Part shown: one piece after another, positions 7,372-63,472 of the stretch
Layout: every line of letters begins with the position of its first letter
Position numbering within the stretch: the stretch's first letter is position 1
Assembly: GCA_002633005.1 (NCBI GenBank)
Contig: NMRA01000433.1
Location: 1-64,000 of the forward strand
Source: Phoronis australis
Taxonomy: Eukaryota; Animalia; Phoronida
Reading direction: 5' to 3'
Length of the DNA: 64,000 bases
Notes under the pieces: model-generated
Seen by the model: only the letters and a program-made list of their open reading frames with translations
Database searches by the model: none
What the model was told of the DNA's origin: nothing
Made by a program: the position numbers and the translations under genes

Positions 7372-8394
7372 CTGAAAAAGTATAATATATATAACAGATA
7401 TACAAGGCACGGTATGTTCGACTACTTTGAGAGGAATAAGTACATGCAGCCAAGTAAAGGTTTTATATTTATATTCTCAACAGTTGCCAACATTTGTTAT
7501 CGTTATGAAACCAGGTGATTCTAAAATTAAATAAGAAATATTTGCTTTTTTAGATTCAAAATGAATGGCTTGAGTCCCGCACACAGTATAATGTTGCTCT
7601 CGTGAAGGGGAATATACATAGTTTTCATTTAGGCTTAATCCATTGTAAATTTAACCACACTAATGTAAAGCATTGAAATTTGCACATGAGTGCAACTATG
7701 CCACAAATGGTATGCTTGGGGGGTGTTCATTAGTACCAAAATATGGTACATGTACATGTTCAAACAAACACGATGGCCGACAAAATTAAAGATGGACTCA
7801 AGGGTGTGCAAAGTACATCAAAACTGTCTGAAAAGGGGCTGGCGTATCCTAATATAGCAAAGACCCATAGAATCCATCAAATAACTCCTAAGACTGAGGT
7901 ATATGTGAAGAACTTAAAAATTAGTCACAAGACTGGCAAAGCGATAGTCGTATTGGTCAAAAACTCTTTGACATCAGTTGACAACTTCACAGGAATTTCT
8001 ACCACTGCGACTTGAGTGGCCGTAGAGATGAGGCTCCTCTAAGGGCTTCATGTGCCAGATGCTATTCGGCGAATAATGCCTCACAGTCACATCTAATATG
8101 TCGCAATGGGGGTAAGGTAATTGTCAGTCAACTGAATGGCAATGGTAGTTTATTCATTTTTCAATAAGCATAACCCAATTTCAATCTGTGAACAGCAAAA
8201 CAAATTCATCAGCATCAGGGTTCATTTACTAGGATGTAAGTTAAATAATCATACTGTTTTTACATTCCCGGAGAACAGACAGGGTGTTAATGACAGTCAT
8301 CGCTATCGACCGATGCTAGTTTCTGCCAATGAACCACTTTAACTGACTGTGCTTTTAGAATCCGTCTTCAGCAGTATCAGCACAGGATTCTTGA

Positions 8395-8490
8395 ATGGCA
8401 TCCTCAGCTTCTGATCGTCCCCAATATACTACATATATTTAGTATTTATATATAGTGTAATGGGAGCGATCAGAAGCTGAGGACGCCTGG
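8395..8490. mobile_element. ~95 bp palindromic MITE, shared with the right copy at about 20550-20645
   Basis: Arms tcctcagcttctgatcg...cgatcagaagctgagga. Confidence 0.75.
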
Positions 8491-8982
8491 GAATTCTTGC
8501 ATATTTCTGTCAGAGACAGAACCGGCTGTTGTTAGCCTTCACAGCTCCAGCAACGCATTTGTCCATGTGTTCACGGCTTATGCCCATTTGTTTGACCTAA
8601 CTGATGAGATAAATCATAAAAGTAGACAACAAATACACAGAAAAAAGTTAAAGCCAGCAGTAAGGAAGGAGCCTGGTTAGCTCATACACATGTCGAGAAA
8701 ATGAAGTCTGTAACAGTGCAACACACGTGTCTAATAACACTAAGAAACAGAAGAAAAATCTGTAGAAAAGAATCCCAGATTGAACCTAACACAATTCTTG
8801 TTAAAATTACCTTATATCTCACGAATTTAAGAAATCCTGCACGCTTCAACACACCAAGAGCAACGAAATAACAACGACCGCTCTTTCCAATACAGGCCAG
8901 AAACTACTTCCCGTATTGGAATGATGACGTCATTCCAATACGGGCCAAATTCAAATACGGGTCGGAAGATCATTGATGCAGG

Positions 8983-13279: not shown

Positions 13280-13850
13280 GCGAAACCAAAACTGAAACCA
13301 TTGTGAGCAAAAAAACCCGAACTGGGAATTTTTATTGCACATTTTGGTGACGTACATAAATAAGATTTCATCAGGTAAGATGATAGCCTAGTTTATAAAG
13401 CATTCGATTTCGCGATAACATATCTCTTCACATAGTCTTAACATGACTGGACGGGTAGAAAATTTGGCACCCAGCTAGAGATCTTGCGTACATGTACAGT
13501 AATTTTAACTTCTGATTGAAGGTGCGTACAGTATTTACAAATAGAAAACGGAGCCCAGATTTCTTAACTAGTAGTCAACACTTGAAACAGTGTTTCCAAT
13601 TCTATGGGACAACATGTTGAAGGTAAATTCAGTTTCTGTCTTTTTCCCCCGTAATATCGGTGTGCAGCCATACATGTAGCTATTAAAACGTGTTTTAGAG
13701 TATGCACACTGCCTTGTTGGGCACGGCAAGGCCTGGTTTCGATTCCGGTACTTCTTAGAAGGACTTATTTATTGAGAATAGATGAATGTTCGTCGTTCTT
13801 TGTTCCACTTTAAGGGTGTTCGACACTGTTTCCAAGAGTTAATATCCTTC
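13280..13850 (+). promoter_or_regulatory. Non-coding block B with ISRE-like and kB-like motifs
   Basis: GAAACCAAAACTGAAACC 13282-13299, GGGAATTTTT 13324-13333, TGACGTA and TATA-like CATAAATA at about 13348-13362, candidate donor catcag|GTAAGA at 13375. Confidence 0.4.
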
Positions 13851-15984
13851 GTTGTGGTGAAACATTGAAATATGATTGTTATATCTAATGGCACATTACT
13901 TGGATTGAAATTTCCAATTTAGCGTGGTTTTTGTTATTCTAACGTCTGATAAAAGCGCGCTATATTAAATTTCACGATGACGTTATACCAAACTAAAAGC
14001 CACACCCAATGGTCCAGACTACTTATAAATAAAAGAAACGGTAAATTTGCATTTTGTTGTGTGTTTTTGTGTCATATAAGAAACAATTTGTTCAATTCAT
14101 TATAGTCATTGGTAAGGTCCTGTGAAGAATTTTACTCTGTCAGCAGTATCATTTTTCAACCTTTTTTATTTGTATTCCAAAGATGTGTCCTGCTCTGAAA
14201 TGAAAACTTCCATGGATATTTGTTGAAAATTACCTATATTTCTGTCTCTGTTCATTGATTATTTTACAACCGCTGAGTCTCTACAACAATGTCGTGGCTG
14301 CGTGTGTTGAAAGACTCTTACACCAACGACAAAACTTTCACTTTCTCATTCTCGCCGTTAGTTTAGCTAACCCATTTTAACAGACGTATTAGTGTAAAAC
14401 AAGCATCTAATCTTTAAACCAAGGTACATTTTAAAAATCGGTAAAGTTTTGGTCGAATTTGAAACTTTTCATTATATTTTGGTTATATTTTGAACTTAGG
14501 TACATGTAAATATCAGCCTTGTTTGACTCTTAAAGTGGAATTGTCGTGTGAAAACTCTTTGTCGTATTAATTTGTCAAATGTGCCACGCAGTGTGTGAGG
14601 TGTTCGAGACGACTACCACAACTGTACCTTGCAAGTCGATTTCCGGTCTTACAACATTTGTGGGGGTTTTAGTATATAAGGCCAACCTATGAAACGCTTA
14701 TTGGCATGTATTTGATGCTACAACTTGTGGTGTAATTTATACAGATGGTGAGGCGTTTATTCGGAAAATTTCCTCTTAAAAGCCCACTCCCAGTGAATTT
14801 TTTTTGTCACAAATTCAGTTTTATGTACTGTTTATCATTTATAAAAACGAGCAATGTGTTGGCGAACTATGCATTTGTTAATATAGAGCATAGAATGCAG
14901 TAAAAATGTCAAAGTGGGCACAACTATGAACTTCCGTTTACACGTTCCCTTCCTGAATAAACACCAGGGCGTTTAGTTGGTGTCACTAAAACGCCTGAAA
15001 ATTTTCATTTTCCGAATGCAAGCCAGTGGGGCTTACCTGCAGAAAATCCCGGTATTACTTTTGACATATCAAGTCTTTAGTAGTTAGTTCAACTTCAAGA
15101 AAGCGCACAACTATTTTCATTTTCTTAGACGGAGGGGACAATGTATATCATACTTTTGTTTACCATCAAGGATTAGCTGTTCTTAAAATATCTGGAAATC
15201 GGTTTAAAAAAGATTTGTGGTGCTGGTATTTCGGTTGTTTGAGGCAAATCGAACTATTTTACATGTCATTGACTAATAGAGTATTCTGTCATTCAGTTTC
15301 AAGTCAATGGCAAGGTAACCATTGGGAATTGTTAGACACTACAATGTATTTATTCATAGGTAAAGTGTATGTGTATTTTATGCATTCAACGAACCTAATT
15401 TCATGTATATGTATACGAATAAGAAGCGTTTTGTAAGCGGCTGCTCGCCAACTCAAGTGTATCTCAAGAGCTTCTTACGCCGGAACGAATCATTTCATTA
15501 ACAAACACTCAAATCTTCAGTATATTCAACTGCATTAAGTGGGCACAAATATTATGCTTCATGATCTGGAAATTTGGTTTCGAACTTAATTTACGTCTGA
15601 TGCAAGCTTCTATTGGCATAAGCGTAATCGCAAGTGGTCTAAACAAAACGTTATAGGGCCTTGTTACGTGGCAGGCCCGGCGACTGAAAGGCAGGACCCG
15701 CCCGTGTTTGTGCCAGATCCTGTGAGGTAACTTAAATGATGATCAGGCAAGCCCAAAACATCTCCTCACAGTTCCATGCTGATTTTTAAATGCTCACTAT
15801 AAAATACAATAAATATACATTTCTAGAAAGCGCTAAGAGGCATTGTATCTGGGTAAAATAAATACAAACAGATCTATATAAAATTATCATACACAAATAT
15901 ATCAATGAGAAACTGATGTTTAGGTTACACTGACATACATGTATCATTAAGAATCATTTTCATGCACAATAAATATAGACCATT

Positions 15985-16824
15985 ATACCACAATATTAGC
16001 CTCGAATGGCAGATACAACCGTGTAATAAGACATAAAGTTATCTCACTAGTGATATATCATTTTGGTGGGAAACCGAACCCGGGCCGAAACAGTTGCGAG
16101 TCGCCGACTTTACCACTACACCACTCAGCGGCTGACGTCATCGAACGGAAAAATAGAATACTTAAATGAGCACGCTACAATCGCATGCTCAGCAAAGGGC
16201 ATTGCACCGACATTTATACGCTCTGAAAAATATGACGCATAATTTCCATAAAAACGATATTTTAATTCAGTGAAATTTTTCTCTCGTGTTCTCTCACTTG
16301 CAAATCACCGATCTCCAATTTGAATGCCGGTACCGTGACGTCGGGTTCGCTTGACTGAGCATTATAGTCAGTTACTAGTGGTAACCTACTTTAGCAGACG
16401 ATATTTTCCCGGTCGAAGCTTGGCGTGATAAAATGTGTAGTAACCTATAATAGTTGGTAAACCTTAACTTTATTTCTACTTTGTTTAATTTTCCAATTGG
16501 TTTTCAGTATAAGCATTATTTGACAAAAATAGCTCGGCTTTTCTTAAAAGGTCACGACCTCCGACCCCGGCCTCTGACATAGAAAGTAGCTACAAAGCCG
16601 AGGCGAGTCGAGGAAGGTAGATCGATTCATTGCAATGTTTCTCGTTTAGTATTTGGTATAAATAGATTATTACATGTTCTCAGTCGTTACCCCCCTTATC
16701 TAGACCCCTCGTGGATTTTGGAGAATTGTCACCGGGGCTAACGCCCCTCGGGCGATAATTCTCCAAAATCTACTCGGGCTCTAGATAACGGGGGATAACG
16801 TCTTCGCCATGTAATAATCTATAT
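15985..16824 (-). mobile_element. Hairpin-terminated non-autonomous element with internal tRNA-like cassette, copy A
   Basis: ~160 bp palindrome TAGATTATTACATG...CATGTAATAATCTA at 16663-16822. Body matches copies B-D. Confidence 0.85.
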
Positions 16825-19081
16825 TTATTCCACAATATTAGCCTCGAAAGGCAGATACAACCATGTAATAACCCATAGTGTTATCTCACTAGTGAGATAA
16901 CATTGTGGCGGGAAACCGAGGCCGGTTTCGAACCCAGGCCTCAAGAGTGTTTTAAGTCGCCGACTCAGCGGCCGACGTCATCGAACGTGAAAATAGAATA
17001 TTTAAGGTTATTTCAAACCTTATTTAGTGGCCTCTATTCTAACTCGTATATCAAAAAACTAACCTTGTCAACTAGTAAAAGTATATATTTTCTGAAAGAA
17101 CAGAGACCAGGAAATATAAATATACTTTTTGTATTTATTTGTCATTGTTAGTTTTACGTAAAAACCTTTTTTAAGTAAAAATTTCATTTTTAAGAAAGGT
17201 ACATTCATAGCAAAATAACCCCTCGGTCGATTTTAACGAAACCTTTTTTAAATGAAAACTTCATCAATTACCTCAAAAATGCTGTTAGGAATTTTCGATT
17301 AGTTTGTTCGTTTGGTTTCTATGACAAATAAACTCGCAAAACGTAAGGTATTTTTGTAAAAAATTGAAGTCGTGTTCGTCTTTGCCACATTACACAAAAA
17401 CTAAGCTTTTATATCAAAAATCCTAACAACGTTTTTGAGATTGGTGACTAAATATTAAGTTTGAAAAGTTTCAGCGATATCCTTCGAGCCATTTTTGAGA
17501 ACTCGTGTTCCTAAGTTCAAATAAAGTCGATTTGCCGAAGCCGAGAAAAGGCCGATTAAACTGGGACACGTCTTTGGTTAATTATTCTGTGGAAACTTGT
17601 TTTCAGTATACATAACCTATAGAATCCTTAACTCGGTCACCTATTTCAATGTTTTCTTGCAATGTCAACTAATTTTGCAGTGCGTAACTAACTTAAATGT
17701 CATTAAAACCCCAATAGACCTATCTTTCGCAGCCAACTTCTGCCGTTTTGTACGACTTACTTAGAAAAGTAGGTCACATTTCATAGCCTGTACACATCAC
17801 GTGCTGGGAGACTGATACCAAACCAAGTAAGAAATGGATAACAAAAATTGAACTGGTGGTTAAAGTAAGTCGTTATCATGAAATCGAAACATCGAAATGT
17901 TAACATAAGAATTGAATTAAGGAATAAATGTGGGGATTTATTTTTTTCACAACTTTCTGTGTTCATGAACAGACTGAGGCCTGAGGCAACTCGTAGCATT
18001 CGTTTTCAACGTCAACTGTCGTATGCATGTAGACGCACAACTCCCTTAGGAACAAAACTACTGTACGTTTTGTCTTCGTTTTCCCCGTATCATAACCACA
18101 CCTCGTTGGTTCAATGTTATGGCGAATTTGTGAATGAAAGGACTGAGGGTATACCGAAGCTGTTCTGTACCTGGCGGGAGACTCGGTTTACTTGAAAGCC
18201 CTTTAACCTTTGACCTTGGATAAGTGGTAAACAAATATCCACGCGGTTGTGCGGTTCCAAGGTGGTTCTGCTAAATCTTTTTTTTTCTCGCTACGCAGTA
18301 TATGTTTCGTATTTGAAGTTCCCCGAGAATGAAGATAAGGTATTTTGCTACACACAAGTGAAATAATGTAAAAATGGTCAATTTTTGTGAATAAAGTTGG
18401 AAATGAGCACGAGCAACAATCGCATGTTCAGCAAAGGGCATTATACCGACATTTATAGACTTTGAACAATAAGACGCATAATTTCCATAAAAACGATATT
18501 TTAATTCAGTGAAATTTTTCTCTCGTGTTCCCTCACTTGTAAATCACCGATCTCCAATTTGAATGCGGGTATCGTGTCGTCGGGATTCTTTGACTTGAGC
18601 ATTATAGTCAGTAACTAGTGGTAACCTACTTTAGCAGACGATATTTTCCCGGTCGAAGCTAGCGTAACGTGATTAAATGTGTACTAAGCTATAATAGTTG
18701 CTAAATCTTAATTTACAGATTCACTTCATTTCTATTTTGTTTAAATTTCCAGTTGGTTTTGAGTATAAGCATTATTTGACAAAATAGCTCGGCTTTTCTT
18801 AAAAGGTCACGACCTCCGACCCCGGGCCTTTGACCTAGAAAGTAGTTACAAAGTCAAGACGAGTCGAGAAAGGTAGATCGATTAATTGCAATATTTCTCG
18901 TTCAGTATGTGGTATAAATAGATTATTACATGCTCTGTCGTTACCCCCCTTATCTAGAGCCCTCGTGGATTTTGGAGAATTATCACCCTCGGGGATAACG
19001 CCCCTCGGGCGATAATTCTCCAAAATCCACTCGGGCTCTAGATAACGGGGGTAATGACTTCGCCATGTAATAATCTATATT
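16825..19081 (-). mobile_element. Same element, copy B (tandem to A), split by a 1.4 kb insertion
   Basis: Homologous to A over 16825-17005 and 18401-19081. Terminal palindrome at 18919-19078. Confidence 0.85.
17006..18400. mobile_element. TTAA-targeting non-autonomous DNA transposon (Kolobok-like) nested in copy B
   Basis: Interrupts the element's aatagaata(c/t)TTAAatgagcacg at TTAA. Left end is GGTTATTTCAAACCTTATTTAG; right end gtgaataaagttggaaat is an imperfect inverted match with the outer bases deleted. Confidence 0.65.
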
Positions 19082-19222
19082 TAGCCGAGCTATTTTTGTC
19101 AAATAAATATGTTTTGGAATAAATCAAAACTTTATTGTTTGAATTTTGTACAGTATCTCAATGTATTGTTTCTGTGTTAACAAAGCCCTTGTATTGATCA
19201 ATTACACGATTGTCTTTCAGCA

Positions 19223-19744
19223 ATGGCAGTCACCCTAGAGGATGTAACTTGTGCTATCTGTAAGGACGTCTACGAAACACCAAAGGCTTTACCATGTTTG
19301 CATACCTATTGTGAGCATTGTATCGCTGATTATTTCAAGGCTACCAATTCCGGAAATACGATAACGTGCCCAGAATGTAGAGAAGATCATTTACTGCTGG
19401 AAGGTGTAGCTGGTCTTCGCAACAATTTCCAAGTGGAAAACATGTTGAAGAAGTATCATCAGAACAAAGGAAACCTTTCAAGCAAGCAGACAAGTAAGCT
19501 CTACTCTCCGACCATGCAAGTCCTCGTAAAGACGATCCACGATAAAACTGTAGCCGTCGAAGTGCCTCGCACAGGAAGTGTCCTTGATTTAAAGAAGAAA
19601 GTAGAGGAATGGGAAGGCGTGCCTCCTCATGAACAACGGCTCCTGTTTTGTGGAAAACAGCTTAGAGACAACATGTCGCTTTCTGATTATCAAATAGAAG
19701 ATGATTCGTGCGTGAATTCCGTTCTCAGACTTTGCGGCGGTTGA
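19223..19744 (+). CDS. RING finger (C3HC4, TRIM-type) fused to a C-terminal ubiquitin-like domain with a free di-Gly end, 173 aa
   Basis: RING: CAIC...LPCLHTYCEHCI...ITCPECR. From Met98 (19514) exactly 76 aa, MQVLVKT...EGVPPHEQRLLFCGKQL...LSDY...VLRLCGG*, 36/76 identical to ubiquitin by hand alignment. Acceptor tgtctttcAG (19219-19220) lies 2 nt before the ATG. Confidence 0.92.
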   Translation: MAVTLEDVTCAICKDVYETPKALPCLHTYCEHCIADYFKATNSGNTITCPECREDHLLLEGVAGLRNNFQVENMLKKYHQNKGNLSSKQTSKLYSPTMQVLVKTIHDKTVAVEVPRTGSVLDLKKKVEEWEGVPPHEQRLLFCGKQLRDNMSLSDYQIEDDSCVNSVLRLCGG

Positions 19745-19934
19745 AGTTATACTCAAGGAAATAGCGGAAATGGAGCTTGTTTTAGAAGCGTTAGTGCTGC
19801 CTCTAGCGACATTATATGAATTTATGTCTTAGAAGTGTTTAGTACTTCTTCTAGCGACAATTTATGTAGTCGTGAACTATAACGATAGACTGCGAAACTT
19901 AGTATTTTATGTTTATGGTCAAGGACGGACCAGT

Positions 19935-21593
19935 GTTTCAGCATACTATTATTGTCCTGCAATGTTGCTCCGACCTGTATTCGATCCTGCCCGTATTGGA
20001 AGGAAGTCATCATTCCAATACGAGAAGTAGTTTCTGGCCCGTATTGGAATGAGCGGTCGTTGTCGTTTCGTTGCTCTTGGTTTGTTGAAGTGTGCAGGAT
20101 GTCTTGTGTTAAATTCGTGAGATATGAGGTATTTTTAACCAGAATTGTGTTAGGTTTAATCAGGGATTCTTTTCTACAGATTTTTATTATGTTTCTTAGT
20201 GTTATTAGACACGTGTATTGCACTGTTACAGACTTCACTCGACATGTGTATCACAGGCGTCCTCAGCTTCTGATCGTCCCCAATACACTACATAAAAATA
20301 CTAAATATATGTAGTGTTTTGGGGACGATCAGAATCTGACGACGCTTGTGATGTGTATCAGCTTGCCAGGCTCCTTCCTTACTGCTGGCTTTAACTTTTT
20401 TCTGTGTATTTGTTGTCTACTTTTATGATTTATCTCATCAGTTAGGTCAAACAAATGGGCATAAGCCGTGAACACATGGACAAATGCGTTGCTGGAGCTG
20501 TGAAGGCTAACAACAGCCGGTTCTGTCTCTGACAGAAATATGCAAGAATTCCCAGGCGTCCTCAGCTTCTGCTCGCCCCCATTACACTAAAAAATACTAA
20601 ATGTATGTAGTGTATTGGGGACAGTCAGAAGCTCAGGATGCCATTCAAGAATCCTGATACTGCTGAAGACGGATTCTAAAAGGACAGTTAATGTGGTTCA
20701 TTGGTAGAAACTAATATCGGTCCTCAGAATCTGATAACGATGTCTGTCATTAACACCCTCTCTGTTCTTTGGGAATGTAAAAACAGTATCATGATTATTT
20801 AACTTACATCCAAGTAAATGAACCCTGACGCTGATGAATTTGTTTTGCTGTTCACAGATTGAAATTCGGTTAATGCTTATTGAATGAATAAACTACCATT
20901 GCCATCCAGTTGACCGACATTTACTTTACCCCCATTGCGACATCCTAGATCTGACTGTGAGGCATTATTCGCCGAATAGCATCTGACATATGAAGTCCTT
21001 AGAGGAGCTTCATCTCTACGGTCAGTCAAGTCGCTGTGGTAGAAATTCCTGTGAAGTTGTCAACTGATGTCAAGGAGTTTTTGACCAATACGACTATCGC
21101 TTTGCCAGTCTTGTGGCTAATTTTTAATTTCTTCACATGTACCTGAGTCTCGGGAGTTCTTTGATGGATTCTCTGGATCTTTGCTTTGTTAGGATACGTC
21201 AGCGCCCTTTCAAACAGTTTTGATGTACTTTGCACAACCTTGAGCCCATCTTTAATTTTGTTGGCCATCGTGTTTGTTTGAACATGTACCATTTCTTTGG
21301 TACTACTGAACACCCCCCGCAAGGCATACCATTTGTGGCACAGTTGCACTCATGTGCATATTTCAATGCTTCACATTAGTGTGGTTAAATTTACAATGGA
21401 TTAAGCCTAAATGAAAACTATGTATATTCGCCCTCACAAGAACAACATTATATTGTGTGCGGGACTCAAGCCATTCATTTTGAATCTGAAAATCAAATAT
21501 TTTTTATTTAATTTTAGAATCACCTGGTTTCGTAACGATAACAAATGTTGGCAACTATTGAGAATAGAATTATAAAACCTTTACTTGGCTGCA
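19935..21593 (-). repeat. Right (inverted) copy of the ~1.6 kb repeat
   Basis: Reverse complement of 7443-8982 plus 9634-9665. Confidence 0.9.
20252..20350. mobile_element. 99 bp MITE with 8-bp target site duplication (hAT- or P-type signature)
   Basis: CACAGGCGTC...GACGCTTGTG termini, ATGTGTAT duplicated at 20244-20251 and 20351-20358. The orthologous site in the left copy (~8685) is empty. Confidence 0.85.
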
Positions 21594-24187
21594 TATATAC
21601 ATAAAGAGTAGACCCCTATGCCTTCGCTTATGAAGAAAAAAAGAAGCGTCAGTTCCAGTCTTTCTGGTGCCAGCCAGAATAAATCACATTTCGGGTACGT
21701 TGAATTATATTCAGTTTGGCGTTATAAGTGATTTACATCACACCCGTGGACTGACAATTTTCCTGCAGGAGACGTCTCGCGCAAAATAACTATGAAAACG
21801 AAATCTCCTTTATTTGATATTAGACCCGTGGTCAACCAAGTATTATAAGCAGTTTTACATAAACGTTTAACTAAAAATAGGACACTAAATTCTCAAGTTT
21901 TGCGAAAGTTACACAGGCCTTCAAATTCTTTGGTCAAGAAATAATTTTCTTCGACATTTTTAGTCTTAGCGAATTTTCAAGACATTTTTGATACGCCTAC
22001 GAATTGATAACTTTGTTTTGTTATATGGTTTGATAGGCATCTTATTTCAATTCACGCAGGATTCTCGTTCGTCTTGTTCCCGCATGCAGTAAGTAGTTCC
22101 TGCTGCATCTATATTTGTAAGTTCCTTGATATACTACACTATCATTACAGACTTTAAAAGCAGTCTTGTTCATCAAGGATTGATATTAGGTTTCACTTCG
22201 GAGCGCTACACGCGCTCAGGGCGCCTTTAAACAGTTTTAATCTGAAATGTTGTCCTTGGCGAATTATTTACTGAGCAAGAAAGAATAAATACCTTTAGTA
22301 CAAATTTTTCCCATTGTAGCTGTCATGGGCCTTTTTCCCACGGCGTGTGATTTTGTGAAATTGTTCCAGAATTTTAATACTTTCGTGATTCCCGCTAATT
22401 AATTTCGCAGCTTACTGGAACTTTCCTACCCCGTTCCTATTTTCACCGGGATCATCGCCTTCGGTCAGAACAGGGGTGCGTCGAGCATTTTAACTTATTA
22501 CGTACAACAAACTATATCTCCTTACTGGGAATATACCCAACCGAGTATTTTTATCCATTCGAGTATTTTTGACAGATTCTTGAAGGAAATTCAGTACAAG
22601 CGAAAAATAACACTCAGATCGGTGTGACGAAGAGCGTCTTCACCGCGAGTTGTCTCAGGTCGGGCTACGCCCAGGCCAGGAAATGAAACTCAGAAATATT
22701 TTAATCTTATGAATCAATTGTAAGTACATGTATCAATATAGTCTACAGAATGTCACTTTTTGAAAGAGGTTTTCACTAATTTGCCTTTCAACAGGGGACT
22801 CCCCGGTCCGATGCAGGAAAAACCCTCCACGGCAGTCACAGGGGCACGATCCCTACCTAGCTACGGGATTCCTCCCCGCAAGTAGAGAGAAAGAGAGAGA
22901 GAGCGAGAGCGAGACAGAGGGTGATAGGTTTATTAACATGAGTATTATTAGCGCATAATACACTTTGAAAAACATGATCATAACCCGCAAAGTGATATGG
23001 TGACACCGATGCCATAGGTGTGCAAGCCTAGGCATACCGCCATCGGCGACTGATTTGAAATAAGTCTAATTACAATTCATTTAACAATGTCTAACATAAC
23101 AATGACAATTGACCAAAATCGTTACATTATTACACACGTAGTGAACTTCTAATTTTAGGCTTATTTTACAGCTGTGCTTTGCCGTCTTCGATGGGGAGCA
23201 AATTTCACGGAGGAAGATATTTATCGTAATCTACATGTATTTTGCCCGGGGTACGCCACGAGCTATGTTGCAGAGTAAAACAAGAGGAGGATTGCAAATA
23301 ATGTCATTTATAAAAAATAAAGAGACACTTGTCAAAATAATGCATTTAACAATTTAAATTTAATTTTATGCCTTAGGCATAAAATAACTTCCCCTCAATA
23401 CCGCGCATGAGCAACAGGGTCGAAGTGGGAAGAAATTTTACGTGGCACCGGTACTCTAGTTTCCTAAATCGGCCTGCATCAAAGTATTTGTAAATGTTAA
23501 TGGCGCATGATCTGGAGCTTGCAGTAAAACAAGTTGAGTAGGTGGCAGAGAAAGGAATTTATATTCTGGGAAATTAAGCGTGAGCTGTTTGAAACAAATA
23601 CAGGTAGGGCTGATGCTCTTACATGTAAACCATGGTTGATTTAGAGGGTCCGAAGGGACGATGCCCCACCTAAAATTCGCTGCAACGTAGTAATTTTTCG
23701 CCGTAACACAATGCTCAGTTTCAATACACGATATACCTATTTGCTATCTAGCTAGAAAAAATGCGTTCAAACCAGCGATCACGATTAAAAGCGAAACAAT
23801 GAAGTATGTTGGATTGGAATTGACTCGTCACCGTGTGTTCTAGGTATATGTACCACAAACAACTTTCACGGAAATCTTTACTTCCAAGACCTATAAATGA
23901 ACTTGGGCAGAAATTTAATCAATCAAAACGCGCAGTGTCAAAACTAGTTGACCTAAGAAGAGCTAGCAGCGATGCTTATAGGAATGTCTTTGTATATGTT
24001 CAGTTTTAATGTTATCAATTATTAAGTGGAGACAACATTCTGCAGCCGTCTATTCATTTCTTCATGGATTAGTTCTTACTTCATTACATTCGTTCATGTT
24101 TCGTTTCCTTGCTTCCTATAGATTCTAGCTGTCTTGATATATTCTCTATTGTGTTAGATGTCAACAGGAGTTAGTGAGAGTGGTAAA

Positions 24188-24970
24188 TATATATTATTAC
24201 ATGGCGAAGTCGTTATCCCCGTTATCTAGAGCCCGAGTGGATTTTGGAGAATTATTGTCCGAGGGGCGTTAGAACATGTAATAATCTATTTATACCACAT
24301 ACTAAACGAGAAACATTACAACGAATCGATTTACGATTTCTGACTCTCCACGGCTTTGTAACTACTTTCTATGTCAGAGGCCCGGGGTCGGAGGTCGTAA
24401 CCTTTTAAGAAAAGCCGGGCTATTTTTGTCAAATAATGCTTTTACTCAAACCAAGTGAAAACTTAAATATAATAGAAATGAATTTATAAATTAAGGTTTA
24501 CCAACTATTATAGCTTAAAACACGTTTTTCCACGTTAAACTTCGACCGGGAAATTATCGTCTGCTAAAGTAGGTTACCACTGGTAACTGAATATAATTCT
24601 CAAGTCAAAGATCCTGACGACACGATACCCGCATTCAAACTGGAGATCGGTGATTTACAAGTAAGAGGCCATCAGAGAAAAATTTCACTGAATTAAGATA
24701 TCATTTTTATGGAAATTATGTGTCTTATTTTTCATAACGTATAAGTACAGTACAATGCGGTTTGTTGAACATACGATTATTGAGCGTGCTCATTTAAGTA
24801 TTCTATTTTCACTCTTGATGACGTCAGTCGCTGCATGGTGTAGTGGTAAAGTCGGCGACCAGCAATCCCAGGGTCCCGGGTTCGACTCCGTCCTCGGTTT
24901 CACGCCAAATCGTTATCTCACTAGTGAGATAACTTTATGGGTTATTACACGGTTGTATCTGCCATTTGAC
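24188..24970 (+). mobile_element. Hairpin/tRNA-cassette element, copy C (hairpin internally deleted)
   Basis: ttattacatggcgaagtcg...catgtaataatcta, then the shared body. A box TGGTGTAGTGG and B box GGTTCGACTCC at about 24836-24889. Confidence 0.85.
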
Positions 24971-26345: not shown

Positions 26346-27224
26346 NTACATGTTTATGTTCTTGCTAAACTTTAGGTCATAGACCAGCAGTGCAGTTTCC
26401 GTAATTGAGACAATACATACAAAGAAGTTAATAAATTATTGTTTAGCAGGTAACTGCAGGTAAGACAAATTAAAAAAAGTGTTTTTTTGAAAATGAACAA
26501 GAGCAGACAATTCTGAGAACCACTGATTTCACAAATCAGCGTACATGTACTACCTGTAGACGCACACAAAATGATATTAACATCGTCCTCATGAAAACGA
26601 CTGCCTTAGGTATGTTAGTAAACATTTTCCCATTACATTTACGTAATAGTTAATTACTAATGGCTGTTGACGGAAGATAATTTTAGTTAAGTTTAAACGC
26701 CTTTTGAATTGCTTTACATGTATATGTTGACTTTGGCAACTGTGACCGCAATTGCTGTTTACATGTGACACGGACACGCACACGTGAGCGCCACTGTCAA
26801 ACTGCATTTCCACTGACCAATTCTACGTGAACTTTGATTATAACAATTCCATGAAATCCCCGGCTATAATATTTTTCGCCACATCGAAATGGTATTTTCA
26901 TTATTGCCAGCGCGAAACTATTCGCAATTAACGAACGAAGCCTTTTTTCGAGGTGAGGAAAGGCTTCTCATGTGATGAAAACCGGTTAGTTTTGTGTTTT
27001 GACCAACGTACCTGAAATTATTCAGTGGCTGTATTCCCACCTACAGTAACTGCTAGATCCATCACGAAACACGATCGTTCAGTAAAGCCGCTAAGGAAAG
27101 CAAGACCGAGACATTCTTTCAGATTACACGGACCAGTGACTAGGCCTGTATTGAAGGTGTTGGCTTAGCTGTAGCTCTTTTGTGCGAAGATTGCCTCGGG
27201 GCTCAGTGCTGAAACACCAATATG

Positions 27225-27791
27225 TTAGATGCTCCCTGCTTGGCCACAACTCCAAGTCCTTAAGTTCATAAAACAGAAATCTCAACCATGTTTTAAACAC
27301 ATTGTCAACTGTTTCTTGACTAATCTTGAAATCGAGAGCCAATCCATAGTCATCTTTTGCTTGGCGAAGCTTTATCAGACAGAGAAACAGTTCATTTCGA
27401 GGGTCGAGAAACTTTGATGAATAATCAAGCTGACTAATTGCAGGATCCGGCATGTTAAAAAACATATTAAAGTGTTCAAAAGTTTCAAATCTTGTGAGGT
27501 ACTTCATTGCTTTGGGTTGTCTGCATAATTTTCTACTCTCGTGCCATCTGTCAGAAAACTACAGTGTACTTCTGCCGAACATGTGGTAGTATTACACGAT
27601 GATGGTGTTTCATCCGAAACAATTTCAATATCGGCGCCAACAAGCAATGGATCAAAATCTTCCTGTATCTCCTCAGCTCGTTCTGAAGTTCTCTTCCGCA
27701 GCCTCTCTTCTCTGTTGGACGAAACTTTTTTCTTGAATGGGAACACAGAAGGCACAACTCCCCGTTTCCGTCTTTTGCTGCTTCCAAGTGC
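27225..27791 (-). pseudogene. ISL2EU/PIF-Harbinger-type transposase fragment (THAP C-terminus plus HTH_Tnp_4), disrupted and truncated before the DDE core
   Basis: KRGVVPSVFPF (THAP AVPxIF box), then KYLTRF..F..FF...LDPRNELFLCLIKLRQ...LALDFKISQETVDNVFKTWLRFL..LWPSRE. The ORF is broken at about 27505. Confidence 0.8.
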
Positions 27792-29264
27792 TTAAACAGA
27801 GCGAAAAATAGCTGTGACTTTCATAGGAAAAGTGTTTAATAACATGCCCCACGTGATTCATGCGAACACTATATTGAAATCTAGTGTAATTACAAAAAGT
27901 TCAATGTCTGAATCAAGAACACCAATCCCGTGTCGTGAGAGGATGAAACTACACGTACATGTAGTTCTCTAAATCTGTGACTGCTATATCGGACAAGTGC
28001 CCAGTGTGACATCAGCGAGTAGGCCTAAGATTGAAATGACCTCTACGTAGAAACGATGCGCGTTTAAATGCCAACAAATTACTTTACGTCATCTTCTACT
28101 TCATAAACTTGCCATAACTAGACGCAAAAAAAAAAATAATCACAAAACTTTATAGATTACGTATTTATTATCGACATCGGAGAATCGACTTCGACCATTT
28201 TGGATTTACCAGTGACACACTTGTACATAATTTAACCTCGAAACCTAAATAAAATTTTTCTATGTTGAAAAAAATATCGCAATTGAAGAACAATACTGTT
28301 CAACATTTTGCACAATACTCCCTTGCCTATCAAAGTTCTAGCAGTCTTCAAATAAAGGGACGCACAGTGAATCTGCAGGAAATCGACTGATCATACAGGT
28401 CTTTAATTTCACTAATTTCCTTATAAAGCAGGGAGATTGGAAGACTTCCCCTATGAGGACACTACTATCGCGGAGGGGTTCACGTGAGTTATGATCAGCG
28501 CAATGGGCCTGCCATGTGGCTTAAGCACGCATCAACGCCAGAAATATTTGACATAGGCAGTGCGCATGCGCAGCCAGCAGCTAAATATCCCCCCACAGAA
28601 ATACACACAAGAAGGGGTTTTCCGAGGAATTTTGATTTAGGGGAGACAACTCTGCAATTTGCCGATAGCTAGCGAGAAAAACATAGATCTAAGGATTCAT
28701 TATGCTGAATATTGGAAATATTGGTGAAGATTTTTCGGTGTCCATTGAAGTTTGAAGTTTGGCCATGTTGATGGTACACAGCCAATCGCCCGGAAGGCAA
28801 TTTTTGAGCCCAAACCCATTTTCAAATCAAATCTGTGGAGAGTATAATTCAGTTCCGTTGTTTGCCGATAGCGGAGGTGACGAACAGTGTGACCTATATA
28901 TCACAAATGCTGTTTTCGAACGAATTTTCTGAAAAAAAACGGTGTCCAACAGGGTGTTGAAAACGGGTTTGCGGCCAGAAATGTAAAATACAGTCACTTT
29001 AAGTTTCGTGATCTGCAGTACGATTTTCAAGCCCTAATGAGGAAGATTTAGCCTGGATTGATTATGCTCATTCCTAGTAGTGCAACAAGAAGCACGTCGG
29101 TCATGTATTTTGCTAAAAAATGAATTCTGAAATTATTGCACATAGAGCACTTCATGAGACGCAGCTAGGTTAAGGTTGTACTAGTCCTTTTTAACATTAT
29201 ATTTCTGTTTTTAATTTATGCTGTGTTGAAGGTATCACATTTATTAAAAAAGAACTCATACCCA

Positions 29265-33609: not shown

Positions 33610-35866
33610 TTACGAGAGAATTGGTCTGGATCGTTCGATCGGTGTTTCATTGTTTCCGTGTATTAGTTTTGGACAGTTGATAGAAGAGAACGTATAGATA
33701 TGCGGATTGAGTCCTGCGTTTATTGGCAAAACAAAGACCACCATCCACACTGCCACCTGGGGATCTACGTGTACACCAAATGCGGAGATGACGCCAGTGA
33801 CCACTATGGGAAACCAACAACAGAGATCGGTAATAACGATCCAACTGAGTTTCTTCGCTAATGCAAGTTCTTTGTTACTCGAAGCACGGCCACTGTTTTG
33901 TTGACTCTGTCGTGATTTCATGTAAATACCAGAATAGCATATGATCGTTAATAAAACCGCAACACCGTTGATTACGATCAAGCTTAGTTTGTATTCGTTG
34001 GAGGAACCCCTTATCAGTGTGAAAGGGAGGCAGACAGCGGTGTCGCCGTAGAAGGCGTTTAATTTCCCAAAGTACGGTAACTCTGTTAGAGGCAACCCTG
34101 CAAAGACACAACAAACAATCCAACCACAAGCCATTATGTACGTGACTGACTTCGTTGTCAGTCGCCGGGCTTGGAATACGAACACAATGGCTATTGTTCT
34201 GTCGATTGTTATTACAGTCAGAACAAACACTGACATCTGACAAGCTACGAAGGAAAAGAAACCAGCAAACTTGCACCCAGTGCCTGTACGCCATATTGGA
34301 TCGTATACGTAATACATGCCGGTCTTCAAGAAGTACAAATCAGCTGCAGCTATGATCAACAGATAGACACCCATAAAAAAGTCTGACATGGCAAGGTTTA
34401 ATATGAGCACTGTGTTGGTACTCCTAATCTCAGACATAGAAACCTTACATCTCCACACAAATACAACGATGTTACCTACAACTGCTGACGTTGCTATTAC
34501 CCATATAAAGACACGGAGCACAATGTTTGACATGAGATCCGAGCAAGAGGAAAATGGATCCGACGAAGGTGTGCAGTTTACATTTTCTTTGACAAGGCAA
34601 CAGAAACGGAAGCTGTCCGTGTGGAGATTACTTACATTCAACGCACTAAACGCATTTTCTTCTATTACAAGGAAGTCGTCGCTAAACTCCAGATTCAAGG
34701 TACCTATGGACATAACTCCTCTGAACGAATCATGGGAAACATGTACCAATCCATTGCGGCTGAGATCTAGATCATATAATCTCAAAGCGAAAAAGACATT
34801 GCCGGTTAGCGTTCGAAGATTGTTACCTGTTAAATTCAAGTGGAAAAGATTAACCATCTTAGAGAAAGAGTAAGGAGGCAACTGCAGAAGATTGTTAAAT
34901 GATATATCTAGCACGCCGATCAGAACATAATGGTCAAATGTTTTCTTAGTTAACCTCAGCTTGTTACCTGAAAAAAGAATTGCTCTCATTCTATACGACA
35001 TTTCGGGAAGTTTACGAAGACCTGCTTCATGACAGTCAATAACATAACCATCACACGAACATCCTAAAGGACACGTGATTTTGGTGTCGCAGAATCTTTC
35101 GTCCTCCCCTGTCCCAATACAGTCAACATGACCATCACATACGCGGGATTGGTCTAAGCACCACTGTTTATCCTGACAATGAAATTTTCCAGGACACGTG
35201 TAATTAGTGCAACTAATCTCGTCTGCCCCATCGGCACAGTCCAACACACTGTCGCACACAGCATGACGCGGTATACAATAACTAAATGGACATTTAAACA
35301 TGCCAGGACACTGTATTTTTTCACACCTAACTAAATGACTTAAGTCGCCACAGGTGCTGTAAAAGTCGTTTTTATCATAAATACAAACACGACTTCGTTG
35401 ATAGCACGCTGGGTGGTCCAACTGACACCTTGTTTGTGTTGATGACGAACAAAAAGGTTGGAAATTAGCGGTGGTGGCGATGCCAATCGGATCTTCAATT
35501 TGAATACTGCCTCTTTTGACGTCAAATTTCGAGAATAGTTCATCCTCCTGTGTTGAGCCCTCGCAATCAACTGTCATATCCAGTCTCTTCTTTCCCGGAA
35601 TGCATGTTCCAGAATAGCATAAATATCCGCCATGGCGTGTACAATTGTGGCGCCAGTCGCACGTCACTTCCAGCTCATCTGATCCGTCCATGCAGTGCTT
35701 CACGAAGTCACAAGCCTTGCTGTTGAGTATGCATTGACCAGAATGGCACCTAAATTCTTCAATCGAACACTTAGGGTGATTACACCTAGTCTCGTCACTA
35801 CCATCGGAGCAGTCTCTCTTAAAGTCACAATAATGCGACATATGGATTTGTTTTCCGTCGCTGCAT
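33610..35866 (-). CDS. GRL101-like LDLa-LRR-7TM GPCR, coding exon 2
   Basis: Several LDLa repeats (CDFKRDCSDGSDE, CDFVKHCMDGSDE, CDSVLDCADGADE, CDGHVDCIGTGEDE), LRRNT CPLGCSC, LRRs, hinge FRFCC..DPFSSCSDLM, and 7 TM with NLAMSD, IDRT, CWFP, NPHIY. Acceptor gttttccAG at 35868-35867, phase 2. Confidence 0.93.
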
Positions 35867-36885
35867 CTGGAAAACATGATTCTGGTTAAGACTTTGGTGA
35901 TAAATCGTTTGGATTGGTTTGTCTGCCAACTGCACAGCTTCCTTTACAGGAAAGTGCTCTGTTTATGCATACACAAAGACACACGAGTGTGCATGTCAAG
36001 GGTAGATACATTTATTCACTGCTCAATACTCCTTCAGACTACCCGAGAAGTGTAAAACCTTGCAAAATGAAAACACCTTTAGTTCGTAGTACTTAAAGAG
36101 GCCTGGAACGCGAGAATCTAAATTGAAATATCTCTGCCACTGAAATAGACTTCAACTTGCTCATCAGATATTTTTAGAGTTTGTGCGTAAACATTTTCAA
36201 TTTCTGTTTCAAATTTCAAAAAGTAGACCTGCCAATTGCTCGCCACTTCGTCGAGTTTTCCCCAACAAGGCAAAACACCAGTCTACAGCAGACTTTTCAA
36301 GATTTCATTTTCTTCAGGAATTGTTTAAAAGATGTTTTGACGAGCTTTTGCGTTCATGCCTCTTCAAGAAAGCTTGACTGAAATCAGTTCCAGTTCTAAA
36401 GCTCGAGCACACAAACGTCAAGACTAGTACGTGGAACTGCAATTTAAATGGAAATGCATTTCCAAGATAACCAGTTATCAATATTTGTACCAAACGTCAC
36501 ATCAAACAGTGTTGCTACCCGCTTTAAAACAGCTCAAATTTTGATGAAATATGGCACGCCAGTCAAGATTAATCACATGTTTTCGCGCTGATGAGGAGCT
36601 TGCGAAGTAAGGATGAGGGAACTTAAAAATAGATAACTGCGATACTCTTCAAAGCGAGAGAAGTGTGCAACCTAAGTTTTGTGAACTACGCACACGTGTT
36701 TTAAAACGCAATGATATGGCATGTTTTAATCATGTTTTGGCATTGTTTCAAATTGTTTTTTTTTAATTCCTTATTATCATTCACGGTGATGACAAAGCCT
36801 TTTTTTAATGTTTATTACGAATTCTTCAGCATACAATGAATCTACATAACCCAGAAAGCGCCAAAACTGGGTAAAAATACAAAGG

Positions 36886-37835
36886 AGGATTTTGGAGAAT
36901 TATCGCCCGAGGGGCGTTAGCCCCGAGGGTGATAACTCTACAAAATCCACGAGGGCTCTAGATAAGGGGAATAACGACTGAGAACATGTAATAATCTATT
37001 TATACCACATACTGAAACAGTGCAATGAATCGATCTACCTTTCTCGACTCGCCTTGGCTTTGTAACTACTTTCTATGTCAGAGGCCCGGGGTCGGAGGTC
37101 GTGACCTTTTAAGAAAAGCCGAGCTATCTTGTCAAATAATGCTTTTACTCAAAATCATTTGAAAAATAAAACAAAATAGAAATAAAGTGAATCTATAAAT
37201 TAAGGTTTAGCAACTATTTTAGCTTACTACACATTTTATCACGCTAAGCTTCGACCGGGAAAATATCGTCTGCTAAAGAAGGTTACCACTAGTAACTGAC
37301 TATAATACTCATGTCAAATTAAGGATCCCGACGACACGATACATGCATTCAAATTGGAGATGGGTGATTTACAGGTGGGAGAACACGAGAGAAAAAGTTC
37401 ACTGATTTAAAATATCCTTTTTTATGGAAATTATGCGTCTTATTTTCATAGCGTATAAATGTTGGTGCAATGCCCTTTGCTGAACATGCGATTGTTGCGC
37501 GTGCTCATTTAAGTATTCTGTTTTCACATTCGAAGACGTCAGCCGCTGAGTGGTGTAGTGGTAAAGTTGGCGACTCGCAACTCCTGAGATCCGGGTTCAA
37601 ATCCGGCCTCGGTTTCCCGCCAAAATGTTATCTCACTAGTGAGGTAACTTTATGGGTTATTACACGGTTGTATCTGCCATTCAAGGCCAATGTTGTGGTA
37701 GAAATATAGATTGTTACATGTTCTCAGCCGTTATCTCCATTATCTAGAGCCCTCGCGGATTTTGGAGAATTCTCCAAAATCCACTCGGGCTCTAGATAAC
37801 GGGTAATAACGACTTCGTCATGTAATAATCTATAT
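36886..37835 (+). mobile_element. Hairpin/tRNA-cassette element, copy D, with hairpins at both ends
   Basis: Left hairpin to about 37000 (5'-truncated), right hairpin at 37706-37833 in flipped orientation. Confidence 0.85.
37545..37614 (+). ncRNA. tRNA-derived Pol III promoter cassette within the element (not a functional tRNA)
   Basis: GCTGAG/CTCGGT acceptor-like stem, A box TGGTGTAGTGGT, T arm CCGGGTTCAAATCCGG. The anticodon stem pairs poorly. Confidence 0.65.
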
Positions 37836-46420: not shown

Positions 46421-47004
46421 TCACTTGGCTCCCCTGAGCACACCTGGCACAGCAAAGCTGCCAGAGTGCGATATCCAAGCATGAGGATACGCATCGAGCA
46501 CTGTGGCACCAAAGAAAAGTTTTTACCTTTTCATGTCCAAAAAGCTCTCGGATCCCGGTCTAAAATTGTGGTTCGTCTCCATTTGAATGAATGTGGATAT
46601 GGATTTTGCCGCCGAAGATGGGTCTGTTTAAGAAGTTATTTGGTTTTCTTTCCGATTTGGAGTACGTACAGCCGTGCATGATACCGCTGCTTTGGAAGTC
46701 ATGCTGAAAGGTGCTGGATTGTTCGAGGTGAAAGTTATAATGCTGGAAATTATGCAGTGCTGAGACTGACTGAGGCCCGCAGAATGCCGATCGATTAAAA
46801 GTTCACTAATTGGTTGTTCGTAGTATTAAGTTGATAAAAAGTCATCATGAAATTCAATAACTACTAGAAAATCAACGTCGTTAAAGGGGTGTGTAAGATA
46901 TAAGCAAACGCAGTGTCAGCTTAACAATATGTGTTTGTCGTCGTCGCCGCCATAAACTGCTTTAGTTGAGGAATTTCTATTTTCAAAATATTCACTTTAC
47001 TTAC

Positions 47005-50000: not shown

Positions 50001-50483
50001 AAAACCGCATAGCGATTCACGAAAACTCTCAACAAATGACGACTGAAATAGAACGTCGTAAGTTCCATTAGAACGTATTGAAGAAACACGACATGGGCTC
50101 AGTTTTCTTCGGGTGTATTTCAGAAGAAACTTTACCGGCGATGCGACTCCGTTTAGATGAAGGGAAATGGTGAAATCACCTGTTATACCAGTTGAAAGAA
50201 TTGTCGGCTTTTCAGCGCACTGACGTGGTTGAATTACTTCATGAACCTTCTCGCCTTCAATGCGGAGTAGCACGAGGTGACATTCGGTAATGTTGTCTAT
50301 CTCAAATTCATAGATGGTAAGAAAAGTCTCTTGCGAATGTTCTGATGTAACTGTCCAAAGTTTGACTTCGTTTTTCGGTGAGGATGAATTGCCTCCATAA
50401 CCACCAGTTATTGTTACACTCTCATGAGCACTTGTATGTAAATCGTGCACAAGCAAAACCAACATTTGCCAGAGAATGCACAT
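47005..50483 (-). CDS. GRL101-like receptor, coding exon 1: signal peptide, CUB-like domains, two C-type lectin domains, first LDLa
   Basis: 3.5 kb uninterrupted ORF. CUB (CVWKF..LQIVF..CSYEGLVIFDG..FGPYCG), CTLDs (GSCY..SWMSARKKC..FIGL..WSNG..W..VPC; CPKGW..YEDALSMC) and LDLa (CDGAMDCRSGEDE). Donor TTC AA|GTAAGT in phase 2 joins exon 2 to give FFKCSDGKQI. Confidence 0.9.
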
Positions 50484-51787
50484 GTCGTAATGGCAGTTAC
50501 GTTATAATTACTGCGATAAAATCAAAGCTTTACCATAACACTCGGTAACCCAAACACTAAATTAATTTGTATGTAGCATTGACATCAAATCACATAAATG
50601 TTTTTTTCGATGGAAGGTCTTCTGTGAATGAAGAAGTTGGGATATGGAATTACCCACGTGTGTTTGAGTCTGATGTAAATATACTTGTTTTCATTGCTCG
50701 AATGTCCTCTTCACACTTGCACTGCTCTCAAGCCGAAATGTTCGCGGCTCCAAACAATAACGTAGTCCTCAAGGATAACGTGTGATCGGTTATTTATCAA
50801 CTTCAACTTACTTAGAAATTTATGTGATACCATGAGTTTACGTAACGCGTACATTACGTTCCATGCAGTGTAGCACGAATGAAGTCAAACGGATGCACAA
50901 CGCAGCCTCAGCTGCTCGAAATCAAAGGTGGCATTCCAGATCTACAGTACTGTAGGGTGGTTCTTTGGAACCAATGGCCAATATGAAGGAGAAAATCAAA
51001 CATTTGTTAACTTCGAACAGAGACAAAAGCTGAGACAGGAGCACAATTTATATCAGCGTGGTGACAACGAATGGGCGGATCTAAATTTGATAGATCGCAT
51101 TTGAACAAATCATTTCAGTTATTTCAATGTTTAACGTTTTTTATGTTACTACCATATCATGAAAAAGTTAAGTTTGAGCTAAAAACGTGACATCTTGCTA
51201 ATCCAATAAATTATTTATAAGCGAATATGTAACAAAAACATAATTTGGTTTATATACATTTAAAAGGAACCGAAAAGAAATTTTACGTTGCTCAATGTAC
51301 ATCAAATAAATAACCTTTGTCACTTTTGCATCAGATGAAAGGACAAATGTTTAATTTTGGGAAAAAAACGGGCATGCATATTTTCTGGTTTGCATGAGTT
51401 CTTCTTACTTCTACCGGAGTCTTAGAAGAATCGTTGCTTATTATAGTAGCTGAAGATGTAGATGAATTCAATGAACATGAAATATATGAAAGTCGGCAAC
51501 AAAACTTAGACAAGTGAGAAAACGAATCTTTCGCACATATATTTCGATACAATACTAAAAGTACGTCTTACCTAGTGAGACCTGACCCGCACCATGTACT
51601 TCTTGCTTTTTATACGTTACTTTGTAATGTAAGCAATAATATTTTTCAATTTTCCACAATGAGAGGAATAAAAATGCATTACATGTAAATGAACGTATGC
51701 GGTTGGACTTAGATTAAGACCATTTAATGTTATGCGTCCGTAGTAACATTCCCATTTGTTTCATTGTTTTTATGCGTGAAATATTTC

Positions 51788-63183: not shown

Positions 63184-63472
63184 CTGAAAACCAAAAAAAA
63201 TAAATTATCACAAAAATTCCGGCATCTCGGCAACAACTTTAAGTTTAGATTACTTTGTTTCATCTCTTTCATTTGCGTATGTCATTTATTGGAATGGAAA
63301 AACAGCTTTCGACAATCGACTTTCAGGGAATTACTACTTCTAGAGCAGAATTTAGTATATAATTAATTTTACCAGGCAGAATTGTTTACTAGTGTGTTCA
63401 CATTCATAGTTCGGATGCCAATACAATACAATCGTGCAACGTCCTTTTAAGACGTGTATGTCCAACCAAGTT

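Follow-up and report, generated by a model that had tools for sequence, protein, structure and literature searches.

Known combinations of ligases and ubiquitin-like domains

In chicken, the protein OASL is conjugated through its C-terminal ubiquitin-like domain (UBL), mainly onto itself (PMC8764230; this and the other papers cited below are drawn on in excerpt). Avian OASL is the closest precedent for a gene of the phoronid Phoronis australis which is described here and called RING-UBL. The gene lies on contig NMRA01000433.1 (NCBI GenBank assembly GCA_002633005.1), within positions 1 to 64,000 of the forward strand, a stretch of 64,000 nucleotides referred to as the window, and it encodes a RING-type ubiquitin ligase (E3) domain followed by a UBL which ends in di-glycine directly before the stop codon. 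The bird protein and RING-UBL are alike in that an enzyme domain is placed N-terminal to a di-glycine UBL, and in OASL the whole enzyme can become the tag (PMC8764230); an enzyme on a conjugated C-terminal UBL is thus already known there. The cargo, however, is a synthetase in OASL and a RING here, and OASL has two UBLs, an intact LRLRGG tail and a cleavable short extension, whereas RING-UBL has a single UBL in which arginine 74 of ubiquitin is replaced by cysteine (R74C), and no extension (PMC8764230).

In ISG15 and FAT10, too, a beta-grasp domain with a C-terminal GG is preceded by another domain, and FAT10 has, like RING-UBL, cysteines in the tail; in contrast to the present protein, the preceding domain is a second, non-catalytic UBL (PMC12355090). 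RING-UBL differs from both also in that no dedicated activating enzyme (E1) is known for it. RBBP6 (with its DWNN domain), Parkin, UHRF1 and HOIL-1 are RING ligases with an N-terminal UBL. The domain order of RING1 and PCGF proteins is the same as here, a RING followed by a C-terminal RAWUL, which is a GG-less binding module. Ubiquitin-zinc-RING fusions are listed for the algae Bigelowiella natans and Guillardia theta, one of them with a stated N-terminal ubiquitin (PMC6332867). The BFVD entry A0A3G4ZQ93 is a Barrevirus “Ring and ubiquitin domain protein” of 434 aa; as in RING-UBL, the algal and Barrevirus proteins have RING and ubiquitin in one chain, a comparison made by listing and name only, and none of them is a characterised protein in the literature covered.

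TRIM2, TRIM3 and TRIM56 have in common with RING-UBL the RING core, the helix after the RING, the linchpin arginine and an essential phenylalanine. They differ from it in having a B-box, a coiled coil and NHL repeats, and the equivalents of their F82 and V89 are polar or charged in RING-UBL. RING-UBL is neither a TRIM protein (it has no B-box and no coiled coil) nor ubiquitin nor NEDD8. An earlier note on this DNA, made from the sequence by itself, knew of no characterised protein with this layout; in the open-access literature no characterised RING-then-UBL-GG protein was found. Our preferred reading, which is held tentatively as a real possibility short of a probable one, is that RING-UBL is a conjugatable ligase in which covalent attachment replaces the lost clustering parts of a TRIM.

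The RING-UBL gene and its transcript

The plus strand holds one open frame of 173 codons at 19223-19744, which terminates LRLCGG-TGA. The gene is real and transcribed, and probably spliced. The evidence comes from three raw RNA runs of one study, about 18-19% of each of which was mapped onto positions 19110-19950; the reads may derive from the assembled animal. The runs gave 109, 140 and 10 mapped reads, and 103, 129 and 8 of these had an identity of 99% or more. The open reading frame (ORF) was covered to a depth of 15-29 in run X2, 18-40 in run X3 and 0-4 in the third run, with X2 and X3 spanning the entire ORF, and expression came to 10.2, 14.7 and 1.1 reads per kb per million reads. First mates lay exclusively on the minus strand, as is usual for plus-strand RNA in most stranded libraries. 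The 2015 contig RNA run left the ORF without coverage. Among the 109, 140 and 10 mapped reads there were no joints, indels or substitutions within the ORF, and GG-TGA was unchanged at depth 22-25 in two runs. The transcript that the earlier note presupposed is therefore present in three runs of one study, and the C-terminus stands as it was predicted, no read splicing it out or extending it.

Two alternatives were considered and rejected. A spliced-out UBL, or a frame due to ORF calling only, disagrees with RNA reads which are unspliced across the ORF; a donor-like site in the linker (19493-19499, plus strand), which could remove the UBL, is left unused by reads at depth of about 20-29. The ORF could also have been the opening exon of a longer TRIM gene, but the window is without further TRIM exons.

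Read coverage begins at an acceptor 5' of the ATG, and the loose read ends at this point match sequence upstream. Judged from these ends, there are two 5' junctions, with donors A and B, about 5.6 kb upstream of the ORF. In the donor A form an in-frame stop lies upstream and the product is the 173-aa protein, while in the donor B form an in-frame ATG at 13604 would add 7 residues and give a 180-aa form.

The RING half and the post-RING segment

The earlier note's intact C3HC4 RING was fully borne out, with eight of eight zinc ligands kept (C10, C13, C25, H27, C30, C33, C49, C52) and a Pfam zf-C3HC4 match at aa 10-52 (E 9.3e-10). The RING is N-terminal and has TRIM-type flanking helices. Its closest solved relatives are TRIM2, TRIM3 and TRIM56 (E from 6.5e-18 for TRIM2 to 2.7e-14), and the match to TRIM2-type structures extends to about aa 75. 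An AlphaFold2 model, based on an alignment of 54 rows that is noisy over the RING, has a mean predicted local distance difference test score (pLDDT) of 90.3 and a predicted TM-score of 0.50, while a single-sequence fold reached a pLDDT of 41. In the model, two domains are joined by a disordered linker at about aa 83-97; aa 1-79 superpose on the TRIM2 RING with Z 12.0 and a root-mean-square deviation (rmsd) of 1.8 over 77 residues. The linker of about 45 aa without GG described earlier has consequently to be redrawn: the only GG is indeed the terminal one, but most of the segment is a TRIM2-type post-RING segment and helix (aa 53-82), and only the part at about aa 83-97 is flexible.

By our mapping, the residues I12, L26, H27, Y37, P50, R53 and F69 correspond to I25, L39, H40, Y50, P61, R64 and F81 of TRIM2. 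Mutation of R64 or F81 abolishes the activity of TRIM2 (PMC9732051), which needs dimerisation via a four-helix bundle; TRIM3 alone is inactive because it stays monomeric (PMC9732051; PMC11992055), and the monomer still binds the conjugating enzyme, E2 (PMC9732051). TRIM RINGs depend on dimerisation or clustering (PMC9732051; PMC7900206), and in TRIM21 clustering is induced by substrate (PMC7900206). The dimer-surface positions M74 and V8 of RING-UBL are still hydrophobic. Taken from residue comparison, the RING looks catalytically equipped yet weakly dimerising. The TRIM2/3-type origin, the need for dimerisation and the apparent partial loss of the dimer surface had all escaped the earlier reading of the RING.

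Relative to TRIM2, RING-UBL has lost the B-box, the coiled coil and the NHL repeats, and its dimer surface seems incomplete. None of these three parts was found within the ORF or at any other place in the window, and when 16 TRIM-like proteins were compared with the window, matches were restricted to the RING, bar one at E 0.029. In metagenomes, 40 of 80 RING-related loci have an in-frame B-box pattern after the RING, hence the UBL here occupies the usual place of the B-box.

The ubiquitin-like domain and its tail

For the UBL, Pfam matches its ubiquitin family at aa 100-170 (E 2.5e-20), and a beta-grasp fold is supported both by Pfam (E 3.7e-21) and by a model which lies within an rmsd of about 1-2 A of ubiquitin chains. 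The same model superposes on the avian OASL structure PDB 7sbi with Z 14.6 and rmsd 1.0 over 75 residues. The domain had been described as an exact 76-aa UBL with di-glycine as its encoded C-terminus, and this was confirmed: it aligns with ubiquitin over 76 aa without gaps, it ends in GG-TGA, and no other GG occurs in the protein. It is identical to the commonest stored ubiquitin unit at 35 of 76 positions (46%), far from the identity above 90% of ubiquitin proper, which was rejected accordingly. NEDD8 was rejected as well, the UBL having Arg72 in place of Ala72; NEDD8 with A72R is no longer activated by NAE (PMC12355090).

All thirteen residues named beforehand are correct, eight being kept (K6, K11, K27, K29, K48, R42, V70, R72) and five changed (L8I, I44L, K63D, H68N, R74C). 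These five are nevertheless a fraction of the 41 differences, and L69S, L67V, G10D, T9H, Q40E, I36V, K33W, A46C, E51R and R54M had been omitted. The hydrophobic patch is retained as I8, L44 and V70.

The tail is better preserved than the body of the domain, with 6 of 7 residues identical at positions 70-76 and 29 of 69 elsewhere (p 0.025). As background, 213 units with 35-50% core identity were taken from 55 stored poly-UBL proteins; R42, R72 and GG are all kept in one of them and GG alone in 13, although the set consists mostly of internal units and is phylogenetically non-independent, which tells against leaning on the comparison. In 5000 runs of neutral drift to 46% identity, the four residues (R42, R72, GG) survived in 5.6%, and in 0.5% they did so with the frame still open. 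Ubiquitin genes that stop right behind GG are rare in the sets examined, at 1 of 150 poly-UBL proteins and 2 of 74 viral ubiquitin ORFs (from the best 80 of 591 loci). These comparisons provide moderate evidence of selection on the tail, which may predate the fusion.

It is the rule that most UBL domains in E3s are not conjugated, and RING-UBL could be an ordinary small RING E3 of this kind, whose UBL either recruits substrate or binds non-covalently to the proteasome, p97 or ubiquitin-binding proteins. Its GG would then be a relic, or else a C-terminal degron that gives the protein a short life. Such a role fits the retained hydrophobic patch and a UBL just 46% identical to ubiquitin, and KLHDC1 and KLHDC2 have a terminal GG as their consensus degron (PMC11568203); moreover, ISG15 shows that more than the right tail is needed for activation by UBA1 (PMC12355090). 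A tail that is better kept than the body, with the stop directly after GG, and a combination of R42, R72 and GG that diverged units seldom keep speak against it, and on balance this explanation is considered rather unlikely.

Activation, transfer and the proposed function

If RING-UBL is a conjugatable ligase, the host ubiquitin E1 (UBA1 or UBA6) would adenylate the tail without a protease step, and the activated protein would be handed to an E2. Ligation to lysines would follow, probably mostly on its own copies as in chicken OASL, and also on neighbours, possibly catalysed by its own RING or that of a partner. Several attached copies would gather the weakly dimerising RINGs, standing in for the lost coiled coil and substrate-binding domain (a step proposed by analogy with the substrate-induced clustering of TRIM21), and the gathered RINGs would build ordinary ubiquitin chains on the tagged complex. 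As for its origin, ubiquitin-derived sequence is presumed to have taken the place of the stretch behind the RING in a TRIM-NHL coding exon.

The steps of this scheme differ in strength. R42, R72 and R74 steer the ubiquitin tail into UBA1, Arg72 acting as the specificity filter of E1 (PMC12355090), and ubiquitin with native Arg72 but altered residues 71, 73, 74 or 75 still forms E1 thioesters (PMC3731359). With R42 and R72 kept and position 74 tolerated by E1, activation of RING-UBL by E1 is plausible on sequence grounds. Of the residues that matter to recognition by E1, R42, R72 and V70 are conserved in RING-UBL and R74C, L8I, I44L and L69S are changes. The earlier note had proposed activation without processing and then ligation to targets; the first part has gained, whereas the second is weakened by the block at Arg74, and ligation to targets is the least secure step.

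Several further observations weigh against conjugation, or against the gene having been kept for it. Non-native residues at position 74 block the transfer from E2 with ligases of HECT and RING/U-box type, although cysteine is unnamed in the passages concerned (PMC3731359), and overexpressed R74 mutants harm the growth of yeast, which their authors read as stalled transfer (10.1101/831503). L69S shifts the binding selectivity of ubiquitin and makes yeast grow more slowly (PMC4497613). When bound to TRIM2, E2~Ub is kept in its closed state by I44, R42, K48, K33 and Q40 (PMC9732051), and I44L, K33W and Q40E map to these contacts. On the RING side, Q70 stands where 32 of 59 homologues have F (the equivalent of TRIM2 F82), K77 is found at the position of TRIM2 V89, K14 is atypical (L in 38 of 59 homologues), and the first cysteine is preceded by just 9 residues (8-62 in homologues), leaving a short N-terminal helix. 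The third RNA run gave 10 reads only. Finally, no orthologue or paralogue was found in the searches described below and selection after the fusion is unshown; both halves may inherit their constraint from the parent genes.

RING-UBL could alternatively be an E2 trap or a decoy. In the first case the tail would be activated, loaded onto E2 and left undischarged while the tethered RING holds the E2, which would damp the ubiquitin pathway; in the second, the free tail would occupy host or viral deubiquitinases. Arg74 variants do reach the E1 and E2 thioesters before they are blocked (PMC3731359), their harm on overexpression (10.1101/831503) points the same way, and a RING which keeps its E2-contact residues with an apparently weakened dimer surface resembles monomeric, E2-binding TRIM3 (PMC9732051). 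On the other hand, two residues with a role in catalysis, the linchpin R53 and F69, are retained, and FAT10 is conjugated with a CYCIGG tail, hence R74 is not needed in every system (PMC12355090). A trap of this kind would be a natural brake on the ubiquitin cascade. As many deubiquitinases read R74, LRLCGG would make a poor decoy for them. Trap and decoy together are judged unlikely.

Should RING-UBL nevertheless be conjugated, it would exemplify a naturally occurring tag that is at the same time an E3 domain. A one-step modification would become a local source of ubiquitin chains, with covalent attachment replacing the substrate recognition of TRIM proteins, and the principle of avian OASL would be extended to a ligase, suggesting that an ISG15-like modifier arose independently in an invertebrate. 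The small size (173 aa) and the single coding exon make biochemical tests cheap. Trypsin digestion of such conjugates would leave LCGG on the lysine, a remnant that searches for diGly would overlook.

Searches for relatives

RING-UBL is known from one locus in one species. A search among proteins of near length gave 2 matches among 29 candidates and one among longer proteins 10 among 275, while a RING profile search gave 536 matches among 5889, of which the best 120 were examined; RING-then-UBL occurred in none of the 130 RING homologues examined. A representative search returned 28,826 matches, and the best 150, dominated by poly-UBL proteins, were uninformative on RING-then-UBL; one of them has a RING located after polyubiquitin. 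In metagenomes there was no match to the whole protein and no UBL at any of 80 RING loci (80 kept of 83, 71 of them with at least 600 nt downstream). Viral contigs gave no whole-protein match and no RING in 74 ubiquitin ORFs (from the best 80 of 591 loci), and a phage search gave no match. The exact protein is absent from the protein collection, and the same is true of all three neighbouring ORFs tested; coverage of the lineage therefore looks poor, and missing homologues partly reflect it. As an observation on the viral set itself, ubiquitin ORFs at eight loci (L123, L124, L133, L135, L141, L144, L148, L159) carry a basic tail of 53-61 residues that is HMG-box-like by eye. Ubiquitin-HMG fusions are listed for Guillardia theta (PMC6332867).

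The absence of fusion homologues from protein, metagenome, viral and phage searches is what would be expected of a young chimera that is still transcribed but has no selected function, formed when the promoter and RING of a TRIM gene captured an already diverged ubiquitin-like retrocopy. Repeats flank the locus, and fusions with ubiquitin form frequently and may be neutral (PMC11354881). This origin is nonetheless regarded as improbable. Over the junction the 519-nt frame stays open and in register, none of the eight zinc ligands is missing, a fold is predicted for each of the domains (by the mean pLDDT given above), and two of the runs show expression of 10.2 and 14.7 reads per kb per million. 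In addition, no reads were mapped at 90-95% identity, so there is no close expressed parent over the mapped stretch.

Candidate motifs at the 5' end of the gene

Two candidate IRF-type sites were found in the window (Table 1) with an IRF consensus, a motif picked after being seen. Both sit at the 5' end of the RING-UBL gene. Two such sites would fall within a particular stretch of 1.2 kb with a probability of about 2.5e-4, a figure to be read with a post hoc motif and an unmapped start site. Against an immune reading, the count over the 64 kb is an ordinary one, with 2 matches where 1.21 are expected and at least 2 in 33 of 100 shuffles. A loose NF-kB-like word occurs at 13324 and a CRE-like one at 13348, the window totals being 25 and 26. 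The IRF-type sites are accordingly a lead and not a support, and an immune setting for the gene is weakly suggested. In its most far-reaching form, the proposal would be that of a one-gene self-ligating immune tag, an IRF-induced modifier which carries its own E3: the RING would move its own UBL from E2 to nearby lysines, R74C and the surface changes would exclude other ligases, and the attached RINGs would cluster and polyubiquitinate the tagged target. It would be an invertebrate answer to ISG15, with modifier and ligase in one molecule, and is considered distinctly doubtful.

Features of the locus and its neighbourhood

Coordinates of the gene and its parts are collected in Table 1.

Table 1. 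Features of the RING-UBL locus, in window coordinates
Feature	Position	Strand	Basis or remark
RING-UBL ORF, sole coding exon, 173 aa + TGA	19223..19744	+	ORF, RNA reads
C3HC4 RING core, aa 10-52	19250..19378	+	Pfam, structure-database sequence matches
TRIM2/3/56-type post-RING segment, aa 53-82 (linchpin R53, F69, dimer helix)	19379..19468	+	comparison, model
Flexible linker, aa 83-97	19469..19513	+	model, pLDDT <50 at aa 86-92
76-aa UBL ending LRLCGG, aa 98-173	19514..19741	+	gapless ubiquitin alignment, Pfam, model
5' non-coding exon end, donor A	13497..13521	+	loose ends of 9 reads (run X2), exact single window match, then GT
5' exon end, donor B	13596..13622	+	loose ends of 18 reads (run X3), exact single window match, then GT
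Intron (inferred)	13623..19220	+	length 5598 nt (donor B) or 5699 nt (donor A); rich in repeats; 3' end a pyrimidine tract + CAG
Probable 3' untranslated region, tentative end	19745..20900	+	one-strand coverage to ~20900; AATAAA at 20887; enters repeat at 19960
Palindromic dispersed repeat inside intron	18401..19083	.	three further long copies in window
Candidate IRF-type consensus site	13289..13299	+	upstream of 5' exon
Second candidate IRF-type consensus site	14334..14344	-	within intron

Most of the probable 3' untranslated region is made up of a 1.5-kb segment which is present as inverted duplicates, 88-91% alike, at 7441-8975 and 19960-21597. The dispersed repeat of the intron has four copies (16164-16827, 18401-19083, 24271-24795 and 36887-37510), which are 85-89% alike and have a 58-nt internal palindrome; it is plentiful in RNA reads from both strands.

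Elsewhere in the window, the minus strand holds a single long receptor ORF at 33610-35943 (755 aa from the first ATG) with four LDLa domains, leucine-rich repeats and a rhodopsin-type seven-transmembrane domain. An uninterrupted ORF of 1160 aa at 47001-50501 (-) encodes CUB, C-type lectin and LDLa domains; an LDLa repeat forms its end, and it may join this receptor ORF, which lies 11 kb downstream on the same strand. At 61904-63238 (-) a frame of 445 codons encodes the N-terminal domain of the GH3 family (E 7.4e-58) and stops early in the central domain, and a broken transposase-like remnant with an HTH_Tnp_4 domain is found at 27124-27900 (-). Taken together with the TRIM-type RING and the intron of 5.6 kb, these neighbours suggest the genome of an invertebrate animal. 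On the plus strand, at 53869-54485 and at 58318-59060, a few hundred bases are duplicated locally in tandem, recognisable by near-identical translated frames.
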